DNA of 64,000 nt from Catajapyx aquilonaris (lineage: Eukaryota), in the NCBI GenBank assembly GCA_000934665.2, contig KZ537989.1, positions 62,001 to 126,000 on the forward strand. Reading direction: 5' to 3'. A program made the position numbers and the translations under genes. This document shows, in pieces, positions 1-46,761 of this stretch; within the stretch, counting starts at the first letter, position 1; every line of letters starts with the position of its first letter. The notes beneath the pieces were generated by a model. It saw only the letters and a program-made list of their open reading frames with translations, did no database searches and was not told the origin of the DNA.

Positions 1-3000
1 AGAGGAAGCATGGGGGGAGGTATAGGATGCGAATGAAAGAGTTTTTTTTTTTTACGACCCGCCCACATTTTTGGCAGACCTTTTTTTTAGTGCCTATAAT
101 AACACTCTTCTTGGTTTTCATCTGAAACTGGTGGTTGGTGGTGAGGGTGAAGGTTTTCAGGTTAGGTTTCTGTGCTCAAGTTGTCTAAGGATTTCCGCGA
201 AGTGTTTTCTTCGTAGGTATATCCATGAGCGGAACTGTATCTGGAAAACGAAATGTCTCCGAAAATTACTTCATGTGGAAGTATTCACTGCGTTACAGTA
301 GTGCTTTGTTACAGCCTGAGCCCTTTATTTTAAATAATACGTGCCGTAGCTTTAGTTCGGCCAATTACACTGGCCAAGACCTTCACCTGTTGCATTGAGG
401 TCAAATTGCAGTGCACAGTACAAAGATTTATGTGCAGAGTCTAGTCGTTCACTGGCCGGGCTGATGGACTGAAATCATTATCGACATAGCATTGATGGTC
501 CCGATGTATCAGCATCGATGAGCGAATCCCTCAGGCGGAAACCCGACATGACTAATAAGAATTCCGAAGGTGTGAGCAATCAAAAATGCTGCGTTGCGAA
601 GGTGTGCGTGATTATGTCCAGCGGTTTGTCTTCCGTGGGATGGCCAATAATTTATGGGGTGCACCGTATGGTAATTATCCTTAGCACAAGATGCATGGGT
701 CCGAGGTGTGGAAGTGACTTTTGAACCAACCATAATTGCGCATTAGGAGCATACGCGGAAGGCAAACTGCAACTTGTGTAACTACCCGAATTTTGCTACC
801 GGTTGGTATGGTAGGCTGTTGCGGAAACCAAACCTTCAGTGTATATGGTGGGAATTTTTCAAATTACAATTTACAAATCGTAGGCAATTAGTAGTCAGTA
901 TCGAAAATTAAACAGACCGCGGTTTGACCACCATTTATTGGCTCCAGTGAGCGCAGTGTTTCGACGTCATTGTGACGCAAAGGGCCGGATTCCTGAGATC
1001 GGGTTGGTTACCTCGGTTTTTGCGGATCCGGGTTTTGAACCCGGTTTGAGTCAACACGAATCTGCTGGCTGACCACACCTTGAGAACCGTGTGGGTTCGA
1101 TCCGTTTAGCTGGTAGCATTATTTGTTGGAGTGTTCTCAACTCGATTAGATGCAGTGGGAGGCCCCCACCGGCTTAATTGAAATAAATCGTGCCTCCAGA
1201 CAAGAACCAGCGCTGAATATTTGGCAGAGTTCCCCGTTCAAAGACCTCTCGCGTTGGCTCCAAACGGAGTTCTCTTGACCTTGAATCAAAAAGCGTGGCC
1301 GATTCAACCCCTGTGTGTGCATGGTTACATCAAGCTCTGTAAAAAAAATGTTCAAAAAAATCTAGTTTATCTCGGTTACAGACAAGTGTTGCATTCGGTA
1401 TGATACAATGTGGGTCAACTCGTGCCATTACCATACACGTGCATTGCTTGTACAGGAAACGGAAGGATATGAAAAGATGCATAAACAGTCACGGATCGCA
1501 CCTAGAGGGCAACGGTTTTCAACGGTTTCATGGATGATGAGAGGTTGTTAGGTACATATTGGTCGCATGGTGTTATCTGCTATAGAAATGGTATATGTCG
1601 AGGCGTTTCCTGGATGGTGACTCGTTCTGGTGGAGAAAGGGAAGGTCGGCTAGGAATTTCGACACGTCGTTGTCACCTTATTCGTCTCTGACTCAGGAAT
1701 CCATTAGCGAAAGGTCGTCCCCCCACTTCCTCCAACACACCGCGGCTATTTACACTCGATTGACACTTCGATACTGTACAGCGTCGACATTACTATACAC
1801 CCTCGATAATTATAAGAATCGTTGAGTGCACCTGGTTCCTTCTGGCTGGCCGCCATTTCGGACAAGCAGAGGCCCTCGTACGTGAAGATGAGGGCCGTCG
1901 ATGACCTTGGCAGAAATACCCTTTCTGTTGTGGTACCCTTGTTTCCATCTTCCCCGAGCCGCGTAATGGCCGAGAGTTCCTGAAGGACGTGCCTCTTCCC
2001 ACTGCTAATGGCAAAGGAAATTATTTTGCGCACGGCACCGGAAGCGCCTTCGCACCACGTTGGGTCGAGGTGATGTCACGTGCGGTTTTTTCGGGGTCGG
2101 ACGCGTATACCCGCGCGCCGTACATGGCATGGTGGGGGGATTAAAAATGGCGGACCTCCCCGGAGTTTGAGGGAATTCCTGGACCAAAGAAACGTGTATT
2201 CTTAAGGCTGACAGGCACGTCCTTTGGATGGGAATTTACGTCGGGGTCGCGCGTCTAGTCTGCTTCCCCACAACAGCTGGTGTCAAGCTTGGAAAACACA
2301 GGGCCACGGAGGGACGACATTGTGCATGTGTGTGCGCCCAGTGTGTAAAAAAAAAAAATAATAAAAATATGGCGGATTGCTCAAGACGGAGAACAGCCGA
2401 GAGGCAAAGCCGGAGAATTGTTTGTGTGTGCTCGATGCATTTGGCATTTCCATTGTCATGACTTGACATCGGTGCCGGTTTGTGTTCATGCGGAGGAGTA
2501 TTATTTATGCGGCGGGAATCAGGAAGTGAAGGCCTAATTATGGAGCTGTGGAATCTTGTCCTCCGGATGGCAAATGGAGCGATTAGTAGCGGAAATTGCT
2601 AATAGCCGATGGTGCAATCCTCCGCCTCCACGACAATGTTCCAATACTGGGGAGTAAAATTTTAGCAGATGCTTCTAGGAAAGTGCAATAAGTTGATCAA
2701 CTGTATGCGACCAACACACAACAGAACTGTTCCCGTGAAGGACTGTTTTTTTAACGTCATGGTTCACGTGGCCGCTAAGGTCAGCACCCTTTCCGTTCAT
2801 GTGTGTCTGCGACCGATGCAGGACTTTGAGAGCAACAACATAACCGGGGAACTGTATAAAAAAAATATTGGAACGAGCGTGGATGCGCAGAGGATGATAA
2901 TTTCCCCGGGAGTGAGTCGGAAGCACATGGCGGTGGACAGTTAAATGACAGATGACAAAGGTCAGGGTCGACGTGCTCCGGCGATGGACTCAGATGCACG

Positions 3001-4537: not shown

Positions 4538-19963
<15,426 letters not shown>

Positions 19964-23500: not shown

Positions 23501-26225
23501 ATGGCTCCCAGGTGGTGGGTGGTGTCCCTGCAGCTCTGCCTCTTCGGGTTCATCAAGGAGCTCAGGATCTCCGAGCCCTTCATCACCCCGTACCTGCTCA
23601 GCCCATACCAGAATCTTACCAGTGATCAGGTACTACTCATCGAAACATTTGGACCCTTTCATGCACGTGGTCATTTTCGTTACTGAATGTGGCGAAGGTA
23701 TAGTGTCTTGCTGACATTTTAGGTCTTTTCTCAAGGAAGTGGGGCTTGTCTTGGATTGTTGCAGGTAAATCATGAAGTGTACCCTGTGTCCATATACTCC
23801 AGCCTGCCTCTGCTGCTGCTGGTCTTCCTTGTCACGGACTTCCTGAGGTACAAAGCAGTCATTGTTTTGGAAGGAATTGCATATGTTATCACGTACTGCC
23901 TCCTCATTTGGGGGAAAGGAGTTCCCACTATGCAGGTGAGATATGCTGTCTTTGCTGGAAATACTACCAGAAGTGAGTGGCCATAAAGCCAGTTATACAG
24001 TAATTGCTGGCAGCTGCAGGCTTCTTGCTTGCTTGATTATTATTATTCAGCGATCAGCGATGATTATGAATTTTTCATTAGTAATTTTTTGCATTATGTC
24101 AGTCGTCCCTATAATATTGTCAGTGTCTATCCTACATTTCTTTTTCTTTTCCAAAGGTGGTGGAATTTTTTTATGCCATGGCCAGCTCAACAGAAGTGGC
24201 TTACTACACGTACATTTATGCCAAAGTGGACCCTAAATATTACCAGCGTGTGACCAGCCACACTTATGGCGCCATCCTTGTGGGTAAATTTCTGGCTGGG
24301 GCTACGTCTCAGGTTGTGGTGTCCACAGGGTTACTCAACTACTGGAGTCTAAATATTGGCACGCTGACCTTTGAGATTCTGGCTCTGATAGTTGCCTTGA
24401 CCCTACCAAGAGTTGAGCACAGCATTTATTTCCACCGGGCAGAAGATCCAGATGCCGGTGTCAGTTCTCCGCAGCAGCTAACCTGTGGACAAAATGCTAA
24501 GAAAGCATATATGTACCTGTGGGATGACTTCAGGGCTGCCTTTTCCGACAAGTACGTGGTCAAGTGGTCCATATGGTGGGCTGTTGCTGCGTGTGGTTGC
24601 ATGCAGGTGGTTACCTATATCCAGCTGCTGTGGGATGAAGTAGGCAATGCTCAGGAAGATACACAAAAATACAATGGAGCAGTTGAGGCCGTCCACACCT
24701 TGCTTAGTGAGTCAGATGCATTGTTTTCTTTTGTAGCAGAATTCTCATAATGGGGCCATCATTATTTACCACTCTTGTTTTAAACTTAGAGAAGGGGTGG
24801 TTGGAGTATTGTATTCTCAAGTTTATCATTTAACCGAGGCTTGCACTTCCAGAGCAAATCTCTTACATTCGATCAGTGGTTCTCACTGGGTGGACAATCA
24901 ACTGATGAAAAAACACACAAAAAAAACACTGTATTTCAATTTTACTGGCAAGTGACAATTTTCTTATCAGGAGGGCTTAAAGTGGGCTGCAGGAGCTTCT
25001 CCATGAATGGGTTGCTGTCAAAGGCATTTGAGAAACAAGATCCAGTGTGTTGCCTCTGCAAGCAATGTTGCTGATGAATATTACAAACTGAATCATAAAA
25101 ATCAGACCTGCATTGATTCACTATTGTACTTGAGTTCAGAACTACTGTCAGGTGCACTGGGAAGTCTGAAGCCAGTTATGCAACATGTCCTTTTTTTCGA
25201 AGTAAAATATTCGAAGGTTTGTAAGGAAAATTGTCCTCCCATCAATATGTAACTCTTGTTTTTACGAGCCTTATGTAATCTTTCCTTATACCTCCTACAA
25301 ATGCACCACTGTTTGCCATGAATATTATTTGCCCTCCTTTTCCCATCCCAAAAATTATTTTGCTTAATTTTACCTGGGTTGGTGACCTAGAATTATCCTA
25401 GAGCCAGTGAGGGGAACAAAGGGTAGGTCGGCATTTATGGGGGTTTATGCAGGAGTTGTATCATACACACTCAAGAAAATTGCACAAATTTTGCAAAGAT
25501 GTAGAAAGGGTGCAGACAATGTGACATGCATGAATAACGTGACTCGAAGCCATCTCTTTTCTATAGTAATGCTCAGTTGTGTTACATGCAATATGGCTGG
25601 CCTACTTCTGTTTCTTCTAAGAATTACTGAAATTACAGAACATATCTTCGACACTGATTACATTATATTGCAGGTGCTTTTGCAACATTTTTGATTGGTG
25701 CTGTCAGTGTGAAATGGGAAGTGTATGGCAATGTAGTCTTGGCAATGCTGTCACTAGTGGAAGGCGTGCTCCTGACCTGTGCAGGACTCATACGTAACTT
25801 ATGGGTGACATACATCAATTATGTCTTATTCCGTATGATCTACCAGATGATGCTCACTGTTGCAAGGTAATTATATGATTCAATTGCAGTTTAATGAAGG
25901 CAATACTGAATTGCAAACCCTACTTTGCAGTGCTGAAGTTGCACGTAAGATTCGTCCAGACAGCCATGGATTGGTGTTTGGCATTAACACTTTCCTGAGC
26001 CTCGCTGCGTCAACTATCCTGACAGCCATTGCAGCTGGTGAGAGTGGTCTGGCGTTGGCTGCTAGCTGGCAGTTCGTAGTGTATGGGGGCTTGTACCTAG
26101 TACTAGGTGCAGTATTCTTAATCATTGCAATTGTCGTGTGCTGCCAGGGTTCTGAGAATTCGGAAGAGTCTCAGCCAACACTTAACCATACCAAGGAAGA
26201 GAAAAATGACCTAGAACACATTTAA
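23501..26225 (+). CDS. SLC19A: SLC19 family (thiamine transporter / reduced folate carrier) MFS protein, 5 coding exons
   Basis: Exons 23501-23629 (LCLFGFIKELRISEPFITPYL), 23765-23935 (VFLVTDFLRYKAVIV), 24157-24706 (STEVAYYTYIYA...KWSIWWAVAACG...YNGAVEA), 25674-25866, 25931-26225 (GLVFGINTF); GT-AG, phases consistent, motifs diagnostic of the folate-carrier family. Confidence 0.93.
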
Positions 26226-26741: not shown

Positions 26742-29700
26742 ATGGAGGAGACGGACCTACGTCTGATCCTTAGGCTAATCTTGATATATCTCCTGCTTCA
26801 AAGGGGATTTTCTGCTGAGGAAGAAGAGCAGGAAAGTAGCAGGTAACTACCATGTGAATTGTCTGTGACCAACTGAGCATGCTTTAACATGTAATGTCAA
26901 TTGTTCCCAAGTCAAAGACCAAGACCGACCCCTTCGCCAGCACCATTGGGTCCTCCGATAGCCAAGTTATCAAATAAATCAGGGTATCGGGGTGAGAATG
27001 TCAAGTCACCTGCTGGTCCCCATGTAGCTTTTAAAGGCATCAGGTTTGCGAAGCCTCCTATTGGAGAGCTGCGCTACCAGGTGAGTCATTATGGCATAGA
27101 CACCAAATTGAGTGCCAATTTAAATACTCTGTTGTTAGGCTCCAGTGAGAGCTGATCTGCCAGTTGGTATTGCTGATGCACTAGAGTTTGAGCCACCATG
27201 CCTGCAACTGGACCCACTTCGCCTCAATTCCACCAAGGGTAGTGAGGACTGCCTCTTCTTGAATGTGTTCACCCCAAGGGTAAGATAATATCAAGATCTA
27301 ATCTTTGATCAACTTTTTACATGTTACATGATTCTGATGAGTTATGATGATGACAGTTATTTTAAGTCCATATCCAACAGGAAGGGAAATTAAATCATGA
27401 GGTCAATTTTTCTTATTTGGATTATGTTTCAGCTGCCACCACAAGGGACCGGCCACCCTGTGATGGTGTGGTTTCATGAGGGAGGCTTCCAAAATGGGCA
27501 GGCCAGCTCCTACCTCCCAGACTACTTGGTGCGTGAGGGTGTCATTGTGGTCACAACACAGTATCGGTTGGGGCCAATGGGATTCCTCAGTACTGGAGAT
27601 CGGCACATGCCTGGAAACTTTGGATTGTTGGACCAAGTATCTGCTTTAGGCTGGGTCAGAGACTACATTACCGCATTTGGAGGTGACCCAGGCAGGGTGA
27701 CATTGTTTGGTACTGATGCTGGTGGCCTCAGTGTTGGGTTGCACATGTTCTCACCCCAATCCAAGGGATTATTCCATGCTGCCATATCCCAGAGCAGCTC
27801 TGTTCTAGCTCCTTTTGCAATACAGCGTGATCCATTAGTGCACTCGAGGCTAGTGGCACGAGAATTAGGATGTGGAGGTGGAGAACTGACGTCTCTGCAG
27901 ATTACGACTTGTGTGAGGCAGAGGTCAGCCAGGGAGACATTGCAGGCAGAGGCCAGGGCAGAGGAGGTGTGGCAGGAGGACCCATTGAAGAGGCCGCCAT
28001 ACTCATCTGCCCCAGTGGTGCAGCCTAGTGGCTTGCCAGATGGTTTTTTGCCAGTGCATCCACTTGAGGGACTGCTTCGGGGAAACTTTACCAGGGTGCC
28101 ATATGTGATGGGTGTGGTCAACCATGAAGGAGCCACTGATGTTCTGAGTGAGTCCTCTCGTTTCCCTGTTTTTCAAGCACCAGTGCATATATTTGCTAGA
28201 ATCCTGAAATTTTATGGGACATACAAATAATATTTATAATCACATAGGCAAATTAGAGACTGTTGGATATATAGGCTATGTTGTATATCTTTCAGATTTT
28301 GTTATTCCTCTGCTCTTGAACCGGACCATTGAGAACCCTGACTACATGCAGGAGGTGTATCTTCCATCTTTGGCTCATGTAGCTGAAGTGGATCGAAACC
28401 AGGGTGCATTTGTGGAGGCCATGCGATTCCAGTACTTCATGGATGATGACTTGAGAACCATCAAGCCTCTGGAGGATGCCCTTGTGAAGGTTAGCAGTTC
28501 TACATATCATTATAATTATTTGTGTAACTTACTCACACAAGCATTTGATTTTCAGCTGTACTCTGATTTATATGTGGTTGCTCCAGCAACACGGGCAGCT
28601 GAAATGTTTTCCAGGCGCATCCCTGTTTTCTTTTATGGATTTGAGCACAATGGACAGAGGCCACTTATGGAGCTTTTCTCATCTGGAGCCTCCAGACGGT
28701 TGCGCAGGCCGGACAAGCCATTTGCAAGAGGTATTGTGGCCAGATGTGTAACCTTAACCTATCACTTTACCAGGAGCTTTCTTTCAAAGGGTCAAGTAAG
28801 GGAAGAGTTACACAAGTCTAGTCCATTATACAAATCTTAGACCTGACAACACATTACTGGCACAGAATGGGTAGCATCAAATGGATACAATGATTCCAAT
28901 GAACTTTTAAAGATTTTATCAGACATTATACAGAGTGTCTGTAAAGTTACTGTGGAGTGAATGAGAAATGACGAAATGTGGTATATAACTGTATTTTTTT
29001 GTGATGAGGGTTGGGAGAGATTGTGAGAAAGGGAGGGCACAAGTGTGTGAACTGTTGGCAAGTCTATGGGGGCCATTTCCAACACCTTCTGTATGAGGTA
29101 AGGCATAATTGGTTAAGTGTGGTTTATGCTTCCAGAGCATGGTAACTTTACTGCCACTTTACTGGTCTGCAGAATTATTAATAGGGGTTTTGGGTGAAAA
29201 TTACGAATGTTGCATATCGTTCACACACAAGCGATGATTTTATGCACACACTGCATTATTTTAAATGAGTTGCTGGTAATTGGTTCCAACCTGTTGAACC
29301 AATTACCACATATAACAGGGGGCTCCATTGTACCATTAATTGCTCTGGTTAATTATGTGGGGAAGTTATTATAGGTCTAAATTTACTACAACTATTGTTG
29401 CCTATAGGGAAGTATGTGACTCACGGTGAAGAGCTGCTCTACCTGTTCCGCTTCAAGCATCCAGGCACTGGGGAGATAATAGAACTGACAGATGAGCGTG
29501 ACATACGAGTGAGAAACATTACAGCACGCCTTTGGTCAAATGTTGCCAAATTTGGGTATGTTTAGATTACTTTAGTGGAAAACTAATCACTGCAACACAT
29601 TTGTGGTATTTGTAGGTACCCAACACTTTCTGGTGGATTTCTGCCTCCTTGGCAGCCACAACAAGCTGGAGCTGGTCAGCCCTTCTATCGCATAGGGGTG

Positions 29701-29853: not shown

Positions 29854-30000
29854 TAATCATTTTCTACTTGGCAAAGAGGGCAGGAATAGTGCAGTTTGGA
29901 ATGTTGTCTTTCAGACTAATTTGGCCAAAAACTATTAGTTGAAATGCTACGGAAATCAACTTATTTTTAATATAGATATTGAAATATTACTTTTCATAGA

Positions 30001-30006
30001 AATAAA
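30001..30006 (+). terminator. Candidate polyadenylation signal of the esterase-like gene
   Basis: AATAAA about 150 nt after the stop, followed by T/GT-rich sequence. Confidence 0.6.
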
Positions 30007-30989
30007 ATGATATCTGCATATTTTGTTCTTGTTACTGGGTGGTTCCATTTCAGATCAGCCAGTGAGTGAAAAAAGGTGTCTAGTGATAGTCATCGATTTT
30101 TTGAAAAAAATATATGTCAAACCTACATCCAATTGAACTCTTGTGGAGCAATCAGTTTTACGAGATTAAATTTAGTTATCGAGATATTAATATTTCTTTG
30201 AAGGGGTACCAAAATCACGATCAGGTGAAGACGCACTTTTTCCCGCTTTTTGGCCGTGGGAAACTTATGGGTTACCTACTTATGTGTTACGTATGGGTTA
30301 ATTATTCGTGGGATAAGGGTTACTTATGGGTTACACACTTATGGGTAACCTATGGGTAACCTATAGGTTACCTTATGGGTCACTTATGGGTTCCCTACTT
30401 TTGGGTTACTTATGGGTCACTTATGTGTTACGTATTGGTCACTTATGGGTCACTTATGGGTTACTTATGGGTTAATTCTTTATATGGGTTACTAATGCGG
30501 TAATTACGTATGGGTAACTTCAGGGTTACGTATGGGTAACTTATGGCTCACTTATGGGTTACCGGTACCTACTTATGGGTCACTTATGGGTTACCTACTT
30601 ATGTGTTGTGTTATGTATGGGTTAATTATTTGTGGGATAAGGGTTACTTATGGGTTACATACTTATGGGTATCTTATGGGTTACATACTTATGGGTTACC
30701 TTATGGGTCACTTATGGGTATCTTATGGGTTACATACTTATGGGTTACCTTATGGGTCACTTATGGGTATCTTATGGGTTACATACTTATGGGTAACCTA
30801 TAGGTTACCTTATGGGTCACTTTATATGGGTTCCTACTTATGGGTTCCCTACTTATGGGTTACTTATGGGTTACTTATGTGTTACGTATGGGTCACTTAT
30901 GGGTTATTACTTATGGGTTACCTACTTATGGGTTAATTATGTGTGTTAAAATGGGTTAATTATGTATGTGTTAAAATTGGTTAATTATA

Positions 30990-31411
30990 CAGGGTGTATC
31001 TGAACTCAGTGCCCCGACGTATATGACTGCCTTCCTAGCCACCAGAGGATCGATTTAAGTATAGGAGTCATATGTCTGGGCAGCCTCATTACTGAGATAC
31101 ACACTAGCGATTTTTGCCTAATCGCTCCTTCTGACTTTTAAATAGAATTTTCTGGTGTAACTAGCCAAAGAGGCCTTACCACCTGTGGGCAACAAACCAA
31201 CAAAGTCCCGCCCCCAGACCTTCCAGAGCCTTCTGACTGGGGGAGGGTTCGATGGGTGGCCTAACCGACAGGATATTTTGTACTACATGTTTGCGGCCAA
31301 TTATCTCCGTAATGAGGCTGCCCAGACATATGACTCCTATACTTAAATCGGTCCTCTGGTGGCTAGGATGGTAGTCATATACATCGGGGCACTGAGTTCA
31401 GATACACCCTG
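30990..31411. mobile_element. Tc1/mariner-type MITE (422 bp) inserted in the satellite
   Basis: TA|cagggtgtatctgaactcagtgccccga ... tcggggcactgagttcagatacaccctg|TA; TIRs about 110 bp, near perfect; reconstructed empty site gttaattatatatgggttta exists at 33261-33280. Confidence 0.93.
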
Positions 31412-33424
31412 TATATGGGTTTATTAAGGGTTACGTATGGGTAACTTGTGTTACTTATGGGTTACCTACGTATGGTTAATTATTTATGGGTTACTTATGG
31501 ATTACTTATGGGTATTTCATGGGTTATTTATTTATGAGTTGGTTACTTATGGGTTACCTACTTATGGGTCACCTACTTATGGATTGCCTACTTATGAGTT
31601 ACATACTTAAGGGTTACTTATACGTTACTTATGGGTCACTTATGGGTTACCTACGTATGGATTAATTATTTATGGGTTAATTATTTATTGATTACAAATG
31701 CGGTAATTACTTATGGATTACTTAAGGTTTACTTATGGGCCACTTATAGGTTACTTTTGAGTTACTTACTTATATGGGTTAATTATTTGTCGGTTAATTA
31801 AGGGTTACGTATGGGTAACTTATGGGTTATATACATACGTATGGGTTAATAATTATTTATTGGTTACCCCTGTTGTAATTACTTACGGGTTACTTTAGGG
31901 TTACTTGTGGGTTACATACTTATGGCATAATTATTTATGGATTACTTATGGGTTACCTACTGATGGGTCACTTATGGGTTACTTATGGGTCAAATTTGGG
32001 TTACTTATGGGTTACCTACGTATGGGTTAATTCTTTATATGGGTTACTAATGCGGTAATTACGTATGGGTAACTTCAGGGTTACGTATGGGTAACTTATG
32101 GCTCACTTACTTATGGGTTACCGGTACCTACTTATGGGTCACTTATGGGTTACCTACTTATGTGTTACGTATGGGTTAATTATTTGTGGGATAAGGGTTA
32201 CTTATGGGTAACCTATGGGTTACCTTATGGGTCACTTATGGGTATCTTATGGGTTACATACTTATAGGTAACCTATAGCCTATACTACTATAGGTTACCT
32301 TATGGGTCACTTATGAGTCCCTTACTTATGGGTTACTTATGGGTCAAATTTGGGTTACTTATGGGTTACCTACTTATGGGTTAATTATGTGTGTTAAAAT
32401 GGGTTAATTATGTATGTGTTTATTAAGGGTTACGTATGGGTAACTTGTGTTACTTATGGGTTACCTACTTATATGGGTTAATTATTTGTCGGTTAATTAT
32501 GGGTAATTACGTATGGGTAACTTATGGGTTATATACATACGTATGGGTTAATTATTTATTGGTTACTAATGTGGTAATTACTTACGGGTTACGTCAGGGT
32601 TACTTATGGGTTACTTATGGGTTACCTACTTATGGCTAAATTATTTATGGGTTACTTATGGGTTACCTACTGATGGGTCATTTGTGGGTTACCTATTTAT
32701 GGGTTAATTATGTAAAAATGGGTTCATTATATGAGTTAATTATGGGTTAATTAAGGGTTACATATGGGTAACTTGTGTTACTTATGCGTTATTTATGGGT
32801 TACCTACGTATGAGTTAATTATTTATGGGTCACTAAGTGTTACTTTGGGTTACTTATGGGTTACCTACGTATGGGTTAATTCTTTATATGGGTTACTAAA
32901 TGCGGTAATTACGTATGGGTAACTTATGGCTCACTTACTTATGGGGTTACTTATGGGGTCACTTATGGGTTACCTACTTATGGGTCACTTATGGGTTACC
33001 TGCTTATGGGTTACCTACTTATGGGTTACCTACTTATGGGTTACGTATGGGTTAATTATTTGTGGGATAAGGGTTACTTATGGGCAACTTATGGGATACA
33101 TACTTATGGGTATCTTTAATATGGGTTACATACTTATGGGTAACCTATGGGCTACCTTATAGGTCACTTATGTGTTACGTACACGTATGGGTCACTTATG
33201 GGTTACTTTATGGATCACTTCTGGGTCACATTTGGGTTAATTATGTATGTGCTAAAATGGGTTAATTATATATGGGTTTATTATGGGTTTATTAAGGGTT
33301 ACGTATGGGTAACTCGTGTTACTTATGGGTTACCTACGTATAGGTTAATTATTTATGGGTTACTAATGCGGTAATTACTTATGGGTTACATAAGGGTTAC
33401 TTACGAGTCACTTATGGGTTACTT

Positions 33425-33765
33425 TTTTTAAATATATACTTCGTGATAGGGCCATGGGCCCTTATAGGGGAATGGAATACCACCATTTTTCTGCAATTTT
33501 CTACTTTTTCTTCTAACTCCGCTGCAAGGATGAAAGGACATGGGGTAAGGATAGGGATTTTGGGGAGGGAACATAGGTGCAAGTGCAATGTCGACAAATG
33601 GGTCATGTGCTGTTCCCCAGAAGGCTAGGTTGCCAGACACCTCCTTGGTGCAGGTCAGAGACCCTCCCGACGCAGGTGAAAGGAAAGTTCCCCAGGCGGG
33701 GATCGAACCTGGGGCCTTTCACTCAGCAAGCCGAGACGTTACCATCTCGGGCACCACACCTCCCC
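33425..33765 (-). mobile_element. tRNA-derived SINE (about 340 bp)
   Basis: Minus-strand head GGGGAGGTGTGGTGCCCGAGATGGTAA (A-box-like) ... GGTTCGATCCC (B box, + 33699-33709), unrelated body, short 3' hairpin, A-rich tail; flanked by cttatgggttactt at 33411-33424 and 33766-33779. Confidence 0.8.
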
Positions 33766-34099
33766 CTTATGGGTTACTTACTTATGGGTTACCTACTTAT
33801 AGCGTAATTATTTATCGGTTAATTAAGGGTTACGTATGGGGAACTTATGGGGAACTTATGGGTTGCTTATTAACATTTATTATTAAAACAAATAACCACA
33901 ATAAAGATGGGTATGGGTAAAAAAGAACTTTCCATGTTCCTGTAATAACTGGCCGTGGTCTGCGAGTGACCCTAATACCATGCAAGTAAAAATTAGGGTG
34001 TGACATTTCCAGTGTACCGATTGCAAACTCGGTGTTTATCATTGTAACCGAACATTGCGTAATTCCTCGCACAATGTCACCCGGACGCAAGGAAACCGG

Positions 34100-34937
34100 C
34101 TGGTAGAACACTTGCTGCCGCTGCCGGTATAAAGAGCGGTAACAAACACGGAAATTGTGGCGTTGAAATGGTCCTCTGCTAGGAGAAGAGATCTTACCAC
34201 CGGATGCAAACTCATTGCCTCCCCACGTCTCAGTTTGTCTCTGGCTTCAGTCATGTAGACTTCAAAATATATGAACCGACATATACAGTCACACGATGAC
34301 CTTTGAGGTTCCGGGTCATGTCCGTAAACAAGTATCTTCATCTGACCTTCTGACCTCGGTAGAACCCGAAGTCCACAATGGAAGGCTGACCCTGATCGCA
34401 GAAGAAGCAGACGAAGGTCAGCCTGAGTCCCCTGCCCCTTCCCCGGAGAGGCCATGAGCTTGAACCTGACCCCTGAGGTCATGGTGTCTTACAGAAGGGC
34501 CTGGTCCATCGCAGGACGAGTGGTGTTTGAGGATGTGGAAATGAAGAAGAAGGGGTCGTGTAGGTTCCTGACCCGGAGGGAGGAGGAGGTGTGGACCATC
34601 AGGAAATGAGATATGAGGGGAGGGAGGGATGGGAGTGGTGGAGATGACGATGGACCAATGAGAAGGATGTTGAAGGCGCAGGGTGGACCAGGACTTCATC
34701 TCTGCGGACATGCTGGTGAAGGAGAAGGGCTCCTCCTGCGTGACCCCTGCTGACCCTGGTGATGATGGGTAGGAGGAGGAGGAGTCCATCACGGTGGTCA
34801 CCCTCTCCACACTCCCTCTGGTCAGGAGGTCACGGATCCAGTCCACTGGGACCCTCTTCACCTCCCTTCCCTCACTATCACTATCTGTATCTCACACTAT
34901 CTTGATGAAAGAGTCTTCCCACACCCGGCCCTGAGGC
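34100..34937 (-). pseudogene. Decayed fragment resembling a divergent ionotropic receptor (IR, variant iGluR): N-terminal region and start of S1
   Basis: Stitching frames gives ...LTFVCFFCDQGQPSIVDFGFYRGQKVR*RYLFTDMTRNLKGHRVTV... then ...VRSLLLAEDHFNATISV, recalling IR motifs CxxC..G.P, LFPDxxxNxxGxxxxV and LAxxLNFT; in-frame stops (e.g. TGA at 34338-34340) and frameshifts; strong acceptor tcttcttacttcag at about 34938. Confidence 0.55.
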
Positions 34938-35531
34938 CTGAAGTAAGAAGACGAGCAGAGAATGTTCCAGATCTGGTTCTGATAATGCGACACTGGTATT
35001 CGCATATGGCCAGATATGGCAGTGGGCAAAAGTGCAAGTATCACCTATCACACAGAGTAGAACTATTGTTACCATGTTCAGGCAGTAAAACTTGAACGGC
35101 ACAAGTTTTGATACGATTCCCGTATTAAATAATATATCGGGTACCGTATACTTTACGTTTGTCCAGGACACAACCACTTTTGCCACCTTTCCGTACGACT
35201 TTGCTGTGCGACAAGGTGTAGGCCTATGTATAACAGAAGTATTCACAGACTACAGGCTTGCCCTGTAATTAGGTGTCCATCAGTTACCCAGAACAGTAAT
35301 GTTCATGCCGTGAACAGCAATAATTACGTTCCCTTGTACCAAAAGTGCTTCCAATTTGGGCAATTGCCAGGTGCGCCTATCAACGTAACTGATCTACCTG
35401 CGACATGTTGGAGTGTTTTATAATTTAGCGCAGATCCATATTGGTCGGCATGCTTTATCCTTCATTTGCTGACATGTATTCTATGTAGTCTATGTAGTCT
35501 AAATACAGTAGTGAAGTACTGTATAGTCTAT

Positions 35532-35922
35532 GTACAGACCGGTCCAATCGGTCCAGTCCAGTCAGTGCAGGCAGTCCAGCAGTCAGTACAGGTCCATCCA
35601 GTCAGTCAAGTCCAGGCAGTCCAGTCCGTACAGACCAGTCTAGTCAGTCTAGTACAGGCCGTCCAGGCAGTCCAGTCCAGTCCAGGAAATCCAGGAAGTC
35701 CAGTCAGTACAAACTAATCCAGGCAGCCCAGTCCACAGTCAGTACAAACCAGTCCAGTCAGTACAGGCCAGTCTACTCAGTCCAATCCAGTACAGGCCGT
35801 CCAGTCCAGTCCAGGAAGTCCAGGAAGTCCAGTCAGTACAAACCAGTCCAGTCAGTTAAGGCCGTCCAGGCAGTCTATAGGCAGTCCAGTCCATGCAGTC
35901 TATAAGGAAGTCCAGTCAGTAC
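35532..35922. repeat. Degenerate CCAGT/CAGT-based tandem repeat
   Basis: Runs of ccagtccagtcagtacag, ccaggcagtccagt and ccaggaagtccagt. Confidence 0.9.
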
Positions 35923-36481: not shown

Positions 36482-36889
36482 TCAGTAAGGCGAAGGCAGA
36501 GAGTCTCTAGCGTTCTGCATGCAGAGGGGTAAGCTCTCGACGGATCCTCTTCCGTATCTGGGCACTGCGTTTCCGCCCTCAGCCTGGTGTCCCGGGGACC
36601 GGTGGTACGTGAACACCACCACACTGTGTCCGTGCAGCTTCGGGTCTCCTGGATAGGTCACCACGGAGACCAGTCGATATCCCAGTTGCTCCAGGGCGTT
36701 GGTCAGATCGATGGCAGGGTGGGTCTTGGGGTGACCCCTGAACTCCACCTTGCTGGGTGCCACCAGGTCGGGCGGATCCCAGAACACCCGGTTCAGGTAC
36801 CGCATCAGCTGGTGCACCTCCCGGTTGCATAGGCCTTCCACCACATGGGTCGAGCGGTACGCCTTCGAAGTCACGATCACGAACGGCAT
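36482..36889 (-). CDS. GFRP/GCHFR-like small-domain protein, paralogue A (135 aa from MPF; CDS intronless; longer N-terminus possible)
   Basis: MPFVIVTSKAYRSTHVVEGL...HPAIDLTNALEQLGYRLVSV...VVVFTYHR; frame is open upstream to 37090; clear homology to the gene at 38324-39261. Confidence 0.75.
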   Translation of the reverse strand: MPFVIVTSKAYRSTHVVEGLCNREVHQLMRYLNRVFWDPPDLVAPSKVEFRGHPKTHPAIDLTNALEQLGYRLVSVVTYPGDPKLHGHSVVVFTYHRSPGHQAEGGNAVPRYGRGSVESLPLCMQNARDSLPSPY

Positions 36890-38323
36890 CTTCTCACTCT
36901 CGAGTGCCCGGGGTACACCACCGACGTAACGGACTTCCTGGTCAGATCTGTGCCCTTTCGGGTATCGGTACGTCCTGGCCGCTCCGATCGATCCCGGCCC
37001 TAACGCAATGCCATGGAAAGACGCAGGCGCCCGGGTGGCAGGTGACGTCATGCACAATGTTAAAGGCACTGTCGAAACTGTGCCATTCACAATACCATTT
37101 TCAGTATAAAAAGAGGAAACTTTGGAAAGGGCAGATTACTCCGCATTTGTTTCTTTGGTGGACGTACAGTACAACTTGTCAGGTTATTACTAATCAAAAA
37201 TGGACTCGACATTTTATCAACAGTGCAAAAGTTTCTTGAGCCAGCAGAAGGTTTGATGAGGATTAGCAATTAACAAGCTCCATCGAGAAAAAAAATTATG
37301 TTTTGCAGGAGTCATAATCGTGACCCAGAACTGGTTAGGAATGATCTCTGGGTTGACCATGCATTTTTGAATTATAAACATGTAAAGCTCGAGTAATTGC
37401 TTTTTAAAAATACAAAAGAGGCTGCCATTAAAAAATGCCCAGCAGGTTTGACCTTTCACACATTTTGCAATAGCTTTCTAGTTTCTGGCAATTGCACTAT
37501 CAACAACAGAATTCATGTTCAGCGTTTGACTAATGAAATGGAATGAAGTACAGTAACTATTGCTCTATATATCTATAGTATATCATGATGTATGGAAAAA
37601 AAAAACTGTCGAATTCTGCCACATTAGGTATATGCAATGGTTTTAAAATTCTGGAATTAAATATTAGTCACAAACCTATGCCTTGTTTTACGAAACGCTG
37701 CTTCTCCTCGGGCTATCCTCAGAGCCTAAACTGCGGTATGTGGTATAGGCTATCATCAATATCATCATCATCATCTTATCATAATAATAACAGTCGTTTA
37801 AATAATGTAAGGGCTACTTTAAAACACTGGCATAATTTGTAATATCCAGTGTGCACTGACTTCAATTTCATTTAGTCAAATATTTTATATAAAAGTGTAT
37901 CTGTAACAAGTATGGTACTGAACTTGAACACACCAAATATTTCAAAAATTTCATCCTTAAAAAAGTGGGCCCGTTTGTGTCAAAATGGATTAAGCTGACT
38001 CTAAACACCAGCTTGTACAATTTCTCACATGATTACATTATCATATTATTTACATAACAACAAAATGCGAATATCAGCTAAATCCGTATTATTTGAATAG
38101 AGGCACAACAAACGCAGTTTAAAAATGGTCTTATGGAACAGTAAAGACTCCTCAACCGTTCCATTTTTCAATAATACAGTATCTCTAAAATATTACTTAA
38201 CCTATAAATAAGCAGCGATGGTCGACATATTAATTTCTTCAATTTCAGTGGAAAAGTACGAGAGTTTGGCTTCAGCAGGGACATGACCAGTTTGCATTAG
38301 AGATTTGACAACGACATAGAGCC

Positions 38324-39261
38324 CTACTCTTCCCCTTCTGCTTCTTCGGCTGGAGGCGCAGTAGGGGTGGCAGGGTCAAAGGGGTCCTCCTCTCTGAGTT
38401 CCTCTGGGGGCAGAGGGTGGGACAGGTACCCAGGAGAGGGTGGTGCTGTGTTCGGAAGTGACCTTCCCCCGTCCGGCCCGTCCCACCCGGACTGACCCCA
38501 TCCCCTGATGGAGAGATTCTCCGATGAACCCAGAGGACTGTTAGGATTTGACCTCCTGGTCCGCACCGAAGGAGGTCGAGGAGGGTACAGGGTGGGCATT
38601 GAGCCCCTCCTCTGGGTCTCCTCCACCAGCCTGGCATGAGCTGGATGAGTCCCAGCTGAAACGGACAAGGCTGATTTATTGGCCTGAAGTTGCCGAGCAG
38701 ATGACCTTTTGTACCTGGAGTAGTGGCGAGAGGCGAGGGCGGGCGGGAGTGCCTGCTGGTTGGGCTTCGACGTTGCATGAACTCTACAGGGGTCATGGCG
38801 GCCAGGGCAGCCTCGTAGGACGGAGGGGCTCCCGAGGCAGTGTCGTCGTCCCTGCTGTTATTGGGCACTATCACGCTGGGAGGCCTGCTGGTGGGGGTCT
38901 GGGGCGCCGTACTTGGGAGAGGACGGTGCATGGTCCAACCGATGATCCTGGTCGAGGCATACCCGTCATCGTCCGAGTAGCCAGCCACCGAGATCAGCTT
39001 GTACCCAAGGTCCTCAAGGGCGTTAAGAAGGTCTGTTGTAGGATGATTGGTCAGATTGCCCTGTACAAACCAAGTACAATCAGTGTACTACGCCGAACCT
39101 GACTCATGTAGGACTACCTTGAATGCCACCTTGCTCTGGGTGATGACCTCCACCTGCGTCCATCCAGTTCTGGCCGCGACCTGTCGCACCTCGAACCACG
39201 TAAGTCCTTCCACCACATGGCGAGAACTGTACGACTTCCTCTTAACCACCACATAAGGCAT
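38324..39261 (-). CDS. GFRP/GCHFR-like small-domain protein with long Pro-rich tail and PPxY motif, paralogue B (273 aa, 3 coding exons)
   Basis: Exons 39261-39118 (GCCAAC-ATG; MPYVVVKRKSYSSRHVVEGL...SKVAFK), 39060-38715 (GNLTNHPTTDLLNALEDLGYKLISVAG...IIGWTMHR...APPSYEAA), 38655-38324 (TAG); 57- and 59-nt GT-AG introns with matching phases. Confidence 0.82.
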
Positions 39262-39726
39262 GTTGGCTCCTCCAGCAGGGGCGCTGACCTATAGCTGCCT
39301 CCCACGAAGAAGAAGGCACCGAGAGAGATATGTTCCGTTACCTGTTGCTGCAAAATGGCCGCCCGGGTCGTCAGCAGGACAGCCAGTGCTGCACCGTGGG
39401 TATTACCTTGCCCGTGGCGTCTGTTCGTCCGCCCTTCTCGATTTACCAGCAGCACCAGCGGGACGGGACGCTCATTTCACTTGTTTTGGCGCAGTTGGAC
39501 GACGTCACTGACGACGACGGGCCTGGGTTTCTATCGATTGGGTTGGGACGCGCAGGGCTGCCTGGCTGGCGTTTAAGCTATGGCGCCACTTCCCACATCA
39601 CTGCCCTTTGCCATACAGCGGTCCCTTTTCACGCAGACTATACGCAGCAGACATAATGTCGCGTGTTACGTCCATGCAATCCCACCGTCATTTGACGCTG
39701 ACGCAGGAGGTGTGGGTGGTGGTATT

Positions 39727-43355: not shown

Positions 43356-44251
43356 TTGAAATTGGTCCGTACGAGGGAGATTATCATGGAAAAGAATCAC
43401 AACCAGTTTCAAAGGCTCTCTCATGGTGGCAGAAAAGCTGTAGTGAAACACTGCTTAACATGAAACGTGAGAACCTTTCGAAATGGCGAAAAGCCCAATT
43501 CCTTTAACTCTGACTGACACTTTCTATGTAAAGATACAGGAAACACAGAGAGGTTGTCGAAAAATCATTCTGCCAATTTTAGACACAAGCCACAACGGGA
43601 CACAACAAGTCAGTTGGCAGCCTTCAAGTGCTGCAATCCAACTGTGTACCAGTCACGAAGAAATGCACACAAATGTGCAAAACGAAATAAAAATCTTACC
43701 GGTCCCCTCCCCATTCCTCTCCAAACACAACAATGAAATGAACATTTTCTGTATACAAATAACAAAATAAAATTATAAAATCACACGCATCACTTTGGTG
43801 TCTGGCACAAAAGCAGGGGGAAAGGTATTCAAGAGAGAAAAAAGAAAGAGGGACATCTAGGACTATGGCCAGAGTTAGTCACCTGCCTCTGCCACCAGTT
43901 AAAACCACCACACACAAGAAGAAACTATTCCGAATGAAGGAGGTCTTCACCGCCAATCACTGGGAGGCCCATTTCAAAATGGAATGTCCAAATGGTTTCA
44001 CCTCGAGGGGTCATGTAAAGGTCGTGGCAATAACCTTGTTAAAGCTTGGAATGGCTTCTGGGTGCAGTTCCTCTCCCCTGGTGGGACCCTCCTCCTCCTC
44101 CTCCGCCTCCTTCTCCATATCCTCCTCCTGCTCCTCCACATCCTCTGACAGCTCTGGCAGGATGGCCGTTGGGCCTGTTGAGCATGGGTCGGGTGGCGAA
44201 CCCCAATTCCTGTGTCCCTCTGTGACCCCCGACCCCGACCCCAACCCCCCA

Positions 44252-46170
44252 TCACAACTCAGTCACAGGTATGGGCTTGAGCGTCTGCTGCTGATTGTAG
44301 GCTGCGCGCACGATGTAGTCCTCATCACCCAGAGTCTTCTGGTACTCGTGCTCTTTTCCACCCAGAGCGTGGTTGTTCCACTTGTAGTCTTTGAACACGT
44401 TCTGCATGCGCTTACGGTAGCGGTACAGGAGGAAAGCCAGCAGGGCCAGGAGTCCCACCGATGCTACACACACTACTCCGATGATGGCCTGCTGCTGAGA
44501 GTGGTGCAGTGCACACGACAGGTCATCGGAGGTCAGCGACTGCATCGGGCGACCCTTCAGTTCTGTTGGCGTTGCACACGTGACCTGAAATTAGAGCACT
44601 CTTAGTTACTTGGCCACTCAATTATGCTTACACATATGATAATTACACTGTGCACTGCACACAAAATTAATGATGAGTGTGAATGAAAAAATTATATGAT
44701 GTGCAGCACAGTGAAGAGCTTGAGATTGGAAGGTGTGTCCTTGGGGGTACTTAGAAGTTAATGAGGCACACCAATGGATGATCCATGGCAACAACCTGAG
44801 TACTGCTGCGCAGGCAAAAGTGTTTGTCAAGTGATGACATGCAACAGATATGTGTAAACAAGTGTGCAGGTTGAATCACTCACCTGGGACATGTTCTTGG
44901 TGACTAAGAGGTCCCTGAGCCACAGCTGCGAGCAGGAGCACTCGAGAGGATTGTCCCTGAGGTCTAGGCTCTTGATGTCAGACCAGGCGGCCAGGCCAAT
45001 GCTGAGCCCAACAAAGTTGTTGTCCCTCAAACTGAGGTGACGCAGGTTGGGCAGCCCCGTCAGAAGACCGTCTGGCAGCTCCCCCAGCTTTTTGTTGCTG
45101 TTCAGCACCAACGTGTCCAGATCCATGTTTCTGGACAGGGCTTCCTTGTCGATGGCCAGCAAGTTGGGTGACCCGGTCACGTCCAGTAGTCGCAGTCGCT
45201 CCAGACCTTGGAAGGCGTGAGCAGGGATCACCTGGAACAAGTTCTGCCCCAGAAGGAGCTCCTCCAGACGGGACAACTTGGCCAGGGCCTTCGTAGGCAC
45301 CTCCAGCAGGTCGTTCTCCACCAGCTGCAGCCGACGGACAGATTCCACACCCTGAAATGCAGTGTTCATGTTAGCTAATTCATCATACACACACAAACCT
45401 TATGTAACTGTGATGCGGATGTAAACCTGAAATGCGTGGGTGGAGATGTTGGACAGCTTGGACCCGCTGACGTCCAGAGTGGCCAGCTTGGGCAGGTTCC
45501 CGAAGGCGTTGTCCCCAAGCAAATGGAATTCGTTGGCACCCACGTGCAGTTCAGACAGACTTGGAACCGTGGCCAGGGCAGATGTGGGTATGCTCTTCAG
45601 GTTGTTGTCGTCTAAGTACAGCACCCGGAGCTCGCTCAGCCCAGCAAAGGCGTTGGGGTGTATCCTGTCAATGCTGTTTTTGCCCAGGTCTAGCTCCTGC
45701 AGGTGAGACAAGGAGGCGAACAAACGCTCGCCCAGCTCCTGCAGATAGTTGCCCCTCAGACTGAGCACCACCAGGGAGCGCAGCCCCGAGAAAGTGCCGC
45801 TCTCTAACTGGGTCATCTTGTTGTGATCAAGGTGCAGCTCCAGTAGCTTCTTCTGCGCCTCGAAGCTCTTGGCCACCACCGAGACCAGCTGGTTTTCCGA
45901 GAGGTCCACATGCAGCAGCTCCCCGTAGAACTGGAAGGCCGCCTCCACCGTCTTGATCCGGTTATTCTTCAGCTGCAGCCGCTGGATGGATGGGTTGAGA
46001 GTGATGGGCAGCACATCCAGGTTGGCATCTTCGCATGTGACCACCAGTTTGTCATCGTCGCAGGAGCATCCGCTGGGACACACCCCTGCAGTCCCCGGCA
46101 CCCAACTCAAGGAGAAGACCAAGGTGACCAGCAGGAGGACCGCTCCTCGGCGACGCAACCTCTGCTCCAT
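44252..46170 (-). CDS. trn/caps: Tartan/Capricious-type LRR single-pass membrane protein (514 aa, 3 coding exons)
   Basis: Exons 46170-45427 (signal peptide; LRRNT CPSGCSCDDDKLVVTC; LDVLPITLNPSIQRL; LRRs), 45351-44884 (LRRs; LRRCT NPLECSCSQLWL), 44584-44252 (VTCATP; TM IIGVVCVASVGLLALLAFLLY; ends PVTEL-TGA); all phase 0 GT-AG. N-terminal motif and PVTEL tail are characteristic of Trn/Caps. Confidence 0.92.
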
Positions 46171-46761
46171 ATTTCCACGTCCGCACCAGGCAGACACCGT
46201 CCGTCTTCTACCTACAAGTAGGGAAGAAGGAGACAGCCTTAGCAATCTGGGTTGTCGGCCAGGATGAGTGTGACAACCCCGATAATAGAGCTACCCAGCT
46301 ATCCCCAGCACCTTGAGATCGATGGATTGCACTCTTGTTTATATCCCGAGGGAGAGGTGCGGCTCAGACAGACTCCCCGATTCCCACATTCGGCTTCCGA
46401 AACCCGTTTAAATTACGAGCACCGAGGAAACTAATGTCTTCGGGCTGTACAAACCGTTTTCCCCGCCGAGACACGGAACGTCCCAAGTCGCAGCTGCGGC
46501 CAACGATGCGATTTGCAGCACAGAAACGGGCAAAAATCCTTTCCTTCCTCGCATGGGAATGGCTCCTATAAATTCGCCCTCTCCAACCCCCCAGTTTTTC
46601 TCCACCTCCCCACCCACAGCTACCCACTACCACCCTACAAACCGCCGCCTTGATTCATTTCTCCCAGAGTAAGAAATCTCCTGCCGCAACTTGTTGCCAA
46701 CTTTTCGCGCAAATTCGCACTCTATACGCACACGCTCCCACCGGACTGCGCCACTGTCGCG

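Follow-up and report, generated by a model that had tools for sequence, protein, structure and literature searches.

What do two small neighbouring genes that resemble the gene for GFRP, the feedback regulatory protein of GTP cyclohydrolase I, encode in Catajapyx aquilonaris, and are they regulators of GTP cyclohydrolase I (GCH1) at all? Both lie on the minus strand of contig KZ537989.1 (here C47), in the 64,000 nucleotides analysed here, which we call the window. Modelling and a spliced contig support the genes, named A and B, as genuine protein-coding paralogues that are transcribed. The modelled domain of A supports assignment to the superfamily fold that comprises GFRP, the KCTD C-terminal domains (CTDs) and the trypanosomal protein Q4D6Q6, not to GFRP specifically, and B, to judge from its identity to A, would have the same fold. 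Because a canonical GFRP is encoded elsewhere in the genome, the evidence supports that A and B are not the organism's GCH1 feedback regulator. By analogy with better-known members of the fold, we see about an even chance that they are ring-forming adaptors devoid of a BTB domain, with B recruiting WW-domain ubiquitin ligases. The two genes comprise the following features, in which X1 denotes a sequencing run.

36889-36482, minus strand: gene A coding sequence, intronless, 135 residues, from ATG at 36889 to TGA at 36482
36596..36889, minus strand: N-terminal domain of A, from an AlphaFold2 model and fold searches
36485..36595, minus strand: C-terminal tail of A, 37 residues, Gly/Pro/Ser-rich, from composition
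36890..38323, minus strand: spacer of 1434 nucleotides between the stop of B and the start of A
39261-38324, minus strand: gene B coding sequence, three exons, 273 residues, ATG at 39261
39118..39261, minus strand: coding exon 1 of B, whose 48 codons encode the first half of the domain with the Met-Pro start, aligned to A residues 1-51 at 46%
39061..39117, minus strand: B intron 1, 57 nucleotides, GT..AG, in-frame stop inside, skipped by one X1 contig
38715..39060, minus strand: coding exon 2 of B, which encodes the second domain half (to 38923) and the Pro/Ser/Thr-rich start of the tail, aligned to A residues 51-97 at 43%
38815..38826, minus strand: PPSY at residues 127-130 of B, within APPSYEA, a candidate ligand of WW domains
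38656..38714, minus strand: predicted B intron 2, 59 nucleotides, GT..AG, from sequence only, with a dip in GC content
38324..38655, minus strand: predicted B coding exon 3, disordered tail with an acidic end, TAG stop at 38326-38324, the sole open frame

The N-terminal domains of A and B are identical at 41 of 94 residues, and their Smith-Waterman score of 196 compares with a best of 43 among 300 shuffles. Identity at the first, second and third codon positions amounts to 58, 57 and 34 of the 94 codons, a profile that reads as the pattern of conserved coding DNA. Because A and B are mutually the closest sequences and stand in tandem, they likely arose by local duplication; support for the A+B clade in the tree was only 61/0. 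A preliminary description of the window, drawn from its letters, had already reported two adjacent minus-strand genes with a common N-terminal domain, and all the A and B motifs that it quoted were found again. It had also claimed that the domain of B appears only after a 57-nucleotide intron is spliced out. This was borne out by one X1 contig that omits exactly those nucleotides, crossing the proposed junction 39118/39060 at a depth of 2.1 with 71 letters on its shorter side. X1 is the single sequencing run available and its type is unrecorded; the splice joint itself points to an RNA origin. Its contigs leave gaps at intron 2 and exon 3 of B, over most of exon 2, and at 37450-37648. The open reading frame (ORF) track misses B because the unspliced ATG-to-stop frame is only 57 residues long. 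At the predicted intron 2, GC content drops to 0.47 from 0.62-0.63 in the flanking exons, and past the stop at 38324 it is 0.40. With that intron retained B would have 310 residues, and the domain and PPSY motif, both upstream of it, would be unaffected. The 5' untranslated region (UTR) of B may hold a further short intron (about 39342-39288, minus strand), to judge from a donor-like site near 39341 and an AG that immediately precedes 39288.

Gene A is covered by an X1 contig (36410-37149) with no differences and no gaps. An outside relative, P0002, is 96% identical to A: 2 of the 98 domain residues are changed, and the 37-residue tail carries three substitutions and one deletion. An upstream in-frame ATG at 37051 could lengthen A by 54 residues (37051-36890, minus strand). 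The gene call of P0002 begins three codons ahead of Met-Pro, and by that start the extension does not look conserved.

The evidence for the fold comes from structure comparison. The AlphaFold2 model of A (score of 85.8 in the predicted local distance difference test, pLDDT; predicted template modelling score, pTM, 0.79) was compared with 48,161 representative chains. The top match was Trypanosoma cruzi Q4D6Q6 (6xyb; Z 10.8; root-mean-square deviation, rmsd, 3.0 over 93), followed by 6sga chain FQ, a trypanosome mitoribosome-assembly chain (Z 9.1), KCTD1 (third of all chains, Z 8.7), GFRP (Z 8.6, with the lowest rmsd, 2.2 Å over 74 residues) and the H1 domains of KCTD16 (Z 8.1) and KCTD12 (Z 7.8). 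The next chain after these six is unrelated and scored Z 6.0. Foldseek agreed, with GFRP at E 5.5e-4, and the identical six chains led the fold search with a model of paralogue C, introduced below. The preliminary description had named the GFRP fold and proposed comparison with GFRP and KCTD structures; both were among the best six, so what stands, from the models of A and C, is the superfamily fold and not GFRP in particular. The kinship of GFRP and KCTD C-terminal folds is itself published (PMC7618933; bioRxiv 10.1101/2024.06.14.599007; PMC6851490). At the sequence level, B was scanned exon by exon against the Pfam GFRP family (PF06399), and exon 2 scored 15.9 bits (E=0.012), under the curated cut-off of 25 bits. 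Matches of A to UB2H (E 0.04) and RHD (E 0.26) were taken as chance, as was the match of the family profile to the designed protein Peak6 in the Protein Data Bank (PDB).

Searching the 286-Mb genome placed A and B in a larger family. A canonical GFRP in three exons on C4131 exceeds the Pfam cut-off and has a match to human GFRP at E 1.2e-10; where the human protein reads GVGQT and EVGPT, it retains these segments as GIGQT and ECGPT. One GCH1 locus was found, on C926. In the alignment, the GFRP-conserved segments E-x-GPT and G-[VI]-GQT are absent from A and B, which are identical to canonical GFRP at 21-22 of 81 residues (about 26%) and carry an insertion of about nine residues in the last hairpin. 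The TQIR..E-GP and GxGQT segments we take to be residues of the phenylalanine site and of the effector-GCH1 face. Downstream of the C4131 GFRP lie ORFs presumably related to the histone chaperone ASF1 and to cytochrome-b5-reductase (L020:1290-1802 and 467-1330, minus strand). Including A and B, at least nine GFRP-like paralogues were found on four contigs, all such counts being lower bounds. Those outside the window are as follows.

C138, within about 11 kb: paralogues C, D, E, F and G and two partial pieces, from genome profile searches
C238: paralogue H, with a model that stops where the first coding exon ends
C1002: paralogue I, from the genome search

The "locally duplicated family" of the preliminary description thus probably holds for the tandem, mutually closest pair A and B; the family as a whole is genome-wide. 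Other claims of that description fared well. That the proteins stand alone agrees with the BTB_2 search, in which none of the 19 genome matches fell on C47. That their tails are disordered agrees with their low-complexity composition and with a pLDDT of 47-62 in the tail of C, and that they are not classical GCH1 regulators agrees with the GFRP encoded on C4131. A branch separating A, B, C, H and I from D, E, F, G and GFRP has support of 91/92, and Pfam GFRP matches 6 of the 13 rows of the family alignment (best E 1.8e-7). The two partial pieces on C138 have probably decayed. Weak genome matches on C4382, C1463 and C5142 gave no score with the family profile and were set aside. On C138, the interval at about 68.2-78.9 kb (L017:6256-8874, L018:135-6933) holds genes C-G, the two partial pieces and an ankyrin-repeat gene. 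Splice donors lie at most 15 nucleotides past the stops of D and E, and acceptors lie ahead of E and F; an arrangement of this kind is suggestive of a polycistronic mRNA that is spliced.

Beyond this genome, relatives were few in databases that are mostly prokaryotic and metagenomic, in which blanks are no proof of rarity. The homologue search with A gave one match among 5 candidates and the search with the 13-row family alignment one among 536, in both cases P0002. The search with the exon-2 region of B gave none among 105 (lengths 144-459), and in single-protein scans none of 2 pattern matches on viral contigs and none of 601 on metagenome contigs was confirmed. The representatives search returned six matches, of which P0002 is the genuine one. 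P0004-P0007 are HYR-like repeat proteins and P0008 is a repeat protein, and they were rejected as sums of per-repeat scores of at most 12.6 bits. Rows of the ESM Atlas are leads without alignment or E-value. The first row was the cluster 'Putative LOC100869493 [Apis florea]' for both A (0.92, 213/256 features) and C (0.90), with nucleocytoviral, GFRP and KCTD H1 clusters close behind; in the search with C just 2 of the 10 best named matches share a family, which weakens the family label. On this Atlas lead the family is probably arthropod-wide, and it would seem that annotations list its relatives as uncharacterised proteins of arthropods. Two clusters dominated by Nucleocytoviricota (91-111 residues, scores 0.88-0.90 against A and C) may represent viral proteins in which the fold stands alone. 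At E<0.001 the search of viral folds yielded a single match, to a BTB protein of Pandoravirus. With Atlas leads and this single match in hand, we make no claim of gene transfer with viruses. A literature search, mostly of open-access texts without supplements, found no study of this arthropod family, and in the available portion of a 2026 review of KCTD proteins the words GFRP, insect and arthropod are absent (PMC13361646).

What the proteins might do is suggested by their tails. The tail of B has 179 residues, 20% of them proline, and paralogue C carries PPPY (APPPYDV) at the aligned position after its domain; B and C, with one copy each, are the only two of nine paralogues with a PPxY motif. 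The PPSY of B had escaped the preliminary description. The tail of A ends in LPSPY, which is not a canonical PPxY, and P0002 has the same terminus. PPxY motifs bind WW domains of Nedd4-type ligases, and proteins of the Ndfip and arrestin-domain type are PY-motif adaptors of Nedd4-family ligases; HECT domains gave 59 exon-level matches in the genome. In the adaptor arrangement, A and B would form propeller rings of four or five blades, either by themselves or together with paralogues, because solved members of the fold are pentamers or tetramers; a pentamer is not assured, because the best structural match, Q4D6Q6, is a tetramer. A partner protein would dock on the outer face of the ring, in the way that G-beta-gamma docks on KCTD CTDs and GCH1 on GFRP. 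Such a scaffold role is suggested because GFRP is described as a scaffold (PMC7750480; PMC4543619) and the KCTD5 CTD holds five G-beta-gamma (PMC10348674). Without a BTB domain A and B would not recruit Cullin 3. Instead, the disordered tail of B would show one PPSY per subunit, so that a ring of B would present four or five motifs together and would bind WW-domain ligases (Nedd4-type HECT) multivalently. A, with its short tail lacking a canonical PPxY, might tune the composition or specificity of the ring.

Known systems resemble this arrangement in part. Like A and B, GFRP is a small stand-alone domain of the same fold with a Met-Pro start, an LExxG[YF] helix-strand motif and a terminal W/F-T-x-x-R/K strand. 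Unlike GFRP, A and B have longer loops and tails of 37 and 179 residues, have lost the GFRP-specific segments and stay under the Pfam cut-off. The KCTD C-terminal/H1 domains (KCTD1 9foi, KCTD12 6m8s, KCTD16 6qb7; PF23110) also have the same fold (Z 7.8-8.7) and form partner-binding pentameric rings (PMC7618933; PMC10348674), whereas A and B carry the domain at the N-terminus, with a Pro presumably free there, lack a BTB neighbour and show 11-13% structural identity to them. Q4D6Q6/Q586B2 (6xyb) and 6sga chain FQ differ from A and B in being tetramers of a distant lineage, with 14-16% identity and no tail; Q586B2 is reported to be secreted, whereas A and B have no hydrophobic signal peptide on inspection. 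The LOC100869493 cluster consists of uncharacterised proteins of 100 residues without a common Pfam family. Motifs are shared with paralogues D-G of C138, and B and C differ in adding PPxY tails.

Several points weigh against adaptor rings. The role of A and B as adaptors is drawn from analogy, and the fold of B from its identity to A. PPxY is absent from A and six other paralogues (H being seen as far as its first coding exon reaches). In shuffled tails, which are proline-rich, the motif arises by chance with a frequency of 0.04-0.11 for B and 0.08 for C; the motif was moreover spotted post hoc, and no orthologue of B was found by which to gauge the conservation of PPSY. A alone has no Pfam GFRP match and aligns to canonical GFRP no better than shuffles do (z 2.0), and in the PDB profile search GFRP chains (E 0.17-0.4) rank behind the designed protein (E 0.003). 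Finally, an adaptor role would not explain the Met-Pro start, which is invariant across all ten full models (nine paralogues and GFRP).

That start raises the unlikely alternative that A and B are proline-1-dependent enzymes or sensors of small molecules or ions, with tails that only localise the protein or set its turnover. In the tautomerase superfamily, the free N-terminal proline exposed by removal of Met is the catalytic base. The N-terminal Pro1 expected of a 4-OT/MIF tautomerase is present in 10/10 models, as predicted starts, despite 16-44% identity; paralogue E inserts a Thr next after Met-Pro, and Pro2 is the sole nearly invariant column of family alignment A2. Q586B2, the homologue in T. 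brucei of the top match Q4D6Q6, was chosen for the proline following its first Met and has moderate tautomerase activity (PMC10899635), and the central channel of KCTD1 binds ions (PMC7618933). Yet the activity reported for Q586B2 is weak, GFRP also starts with Met-Pro and is described as a scaffold (PMC7750480), and no further polar residue is invariant across the paralogues. The N-terminus is moreover only predicted, given the earlier start of P0002 and the ATG of A at 37051. As for the beta-alpha-beta tautomerase fold, no tautomerase occurs among the 50 best rows of either wide fold search, those with A and C being led instead by GFRP/KCTD-type chains. We are similarly doubtful that A and B are divergent GCH1 modulators, binding GCH1 or co-assembling with GFRP as tissue-specific or dominant-negative pterin regulators. 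The common fold, with its lowest rmsd to GFRP, would fit, as would the Met-Pro-aromatic start, the LExxGY and WTxxR motifs and the Pfam matches of 6/13 family rows, and the data do not reject a grouping of A and B with GFRP in one clade (p-AU 0.08). These have to be set against the low identity to canonical GFRP, the replacement of the TQIR..E-GP and GxGQT segments, the insertion in the last hairpin, and a genome that already has one GCH1 and one canonical GFRP.

Decay of functionless duplicates of a GFRP-like gene is very unlikely. It would be in keeping with the two partial pieces on C138, and with one outside relative found for A and none for B, but the frames are intact, the splice sites are canonical and a spliced X1 contig exists; third codon positions have diverged more than first and second ones, and the changes between A and its 96%-identical relative are concentrated in the tail. 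It is harder still to credit, to the point of near dismissal, that A and B belong, as exons or fragments, to a longer KCTD-type gene with an upstream BTB domain. The fold is common to KCTD CTDs, and the best viral fold match is a BTB/POZ protein (E 4e-4). Against this, A and B each begin with their own ATG-Pro at the first strand of the fold, where GFRP begins, and no BTB_2 match lies on C47. Neither A nor B matches PF23110 (KCTD8/12/16 H1) at E up to 10, and the single PF23110 match in the genome, on C6342, has no family-profile score.

The tandem arrangement also bears on how adaptor rings of A and B might be composed. X1 contigs cover the spacer at 37649-38217, at 37158-37449 and up to 37149, at a depth of 3-5, similar to that of A. 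AATAAA/ATTAAA was not seen in the spacer against 2.4 expected (P(0)=0.07) and is likewise absent from the 532 nucleotides past the stop of A. Coverage and the missing poly(A) signal make read-through or long UTRs possible. No X1 contig joins B and A, and the contigs are strandless. In FlyBase, loci that are only polycistronic have gaps of at most 319 nucleotides, compared with 1434 here (PMC4528330). An extended version, which we hold to be rather improbable, would make A, B, C, H and I combinatorial BTB-less KCTDs in which PPxY tails and HECT ligases replace Cullin 3, and a dicistronic B+A mRNA gives mixed rings that set the number of ligase tails.

The wider neighbourhood in the window holds the following genes, with spans listed in the order of kinase, carrier, carboxylesterase and leucine-rich repeat (LRR) gene.

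6400-18900, plus strand: kinase with a CNH domain, Pfam
24100-26200, plus strand: folate/thiamine-carrier family gene, Pfam
27400-28800, plus strand: carboxylesterase, Pfam
44250-46290, minus strand: LRR transmembrane gene, Pfam

We take the CNH kinase to be misshapen and the LRR gene to be tartan/capricious. Downstream of A, a GC-rich, coding-like stretch at 34039-34891 (minus strand) contains several open frames of 68-157 residues; it has no Pfam match at E 0.01 and no X1 coverage. A degenerate short tandem repeat of GACTG/GGACT type (about 35500-35900) separates A from this element at 34-35 kb. Over about 30000-33950 extends a long satellite, degenerate and strongly strand-skewed, that is built of AGTAACCCATA-type units; its part at 33500-33770 is a high-depth repeat in X1.

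The fold and its use in ring adaptors are already known; the tailed, PPxY-bearing, BTB-less form is new. To our knowledge, GFRP, one gene with one task, is the stand-alone form of this fold known from animals. That a single genome has at least nine divergent paralogues of the stand-alone kind, next to an intact GFRP-GCH1 pair, suggests that the ring has been reused for other partners. A common origin has been proposed for GFRP and the C-terminal domains of KCTD proteins (PMC7618933), and these paralogues would be natural intermediates in it. A and B are small and easy to express, which makes ring size, partners and Pro1 chemistry directly testable. If the PPxY tails do work, they would constitute a route from ring to HECT ligase that runs parallel to that from KCTD to Cullin 3.

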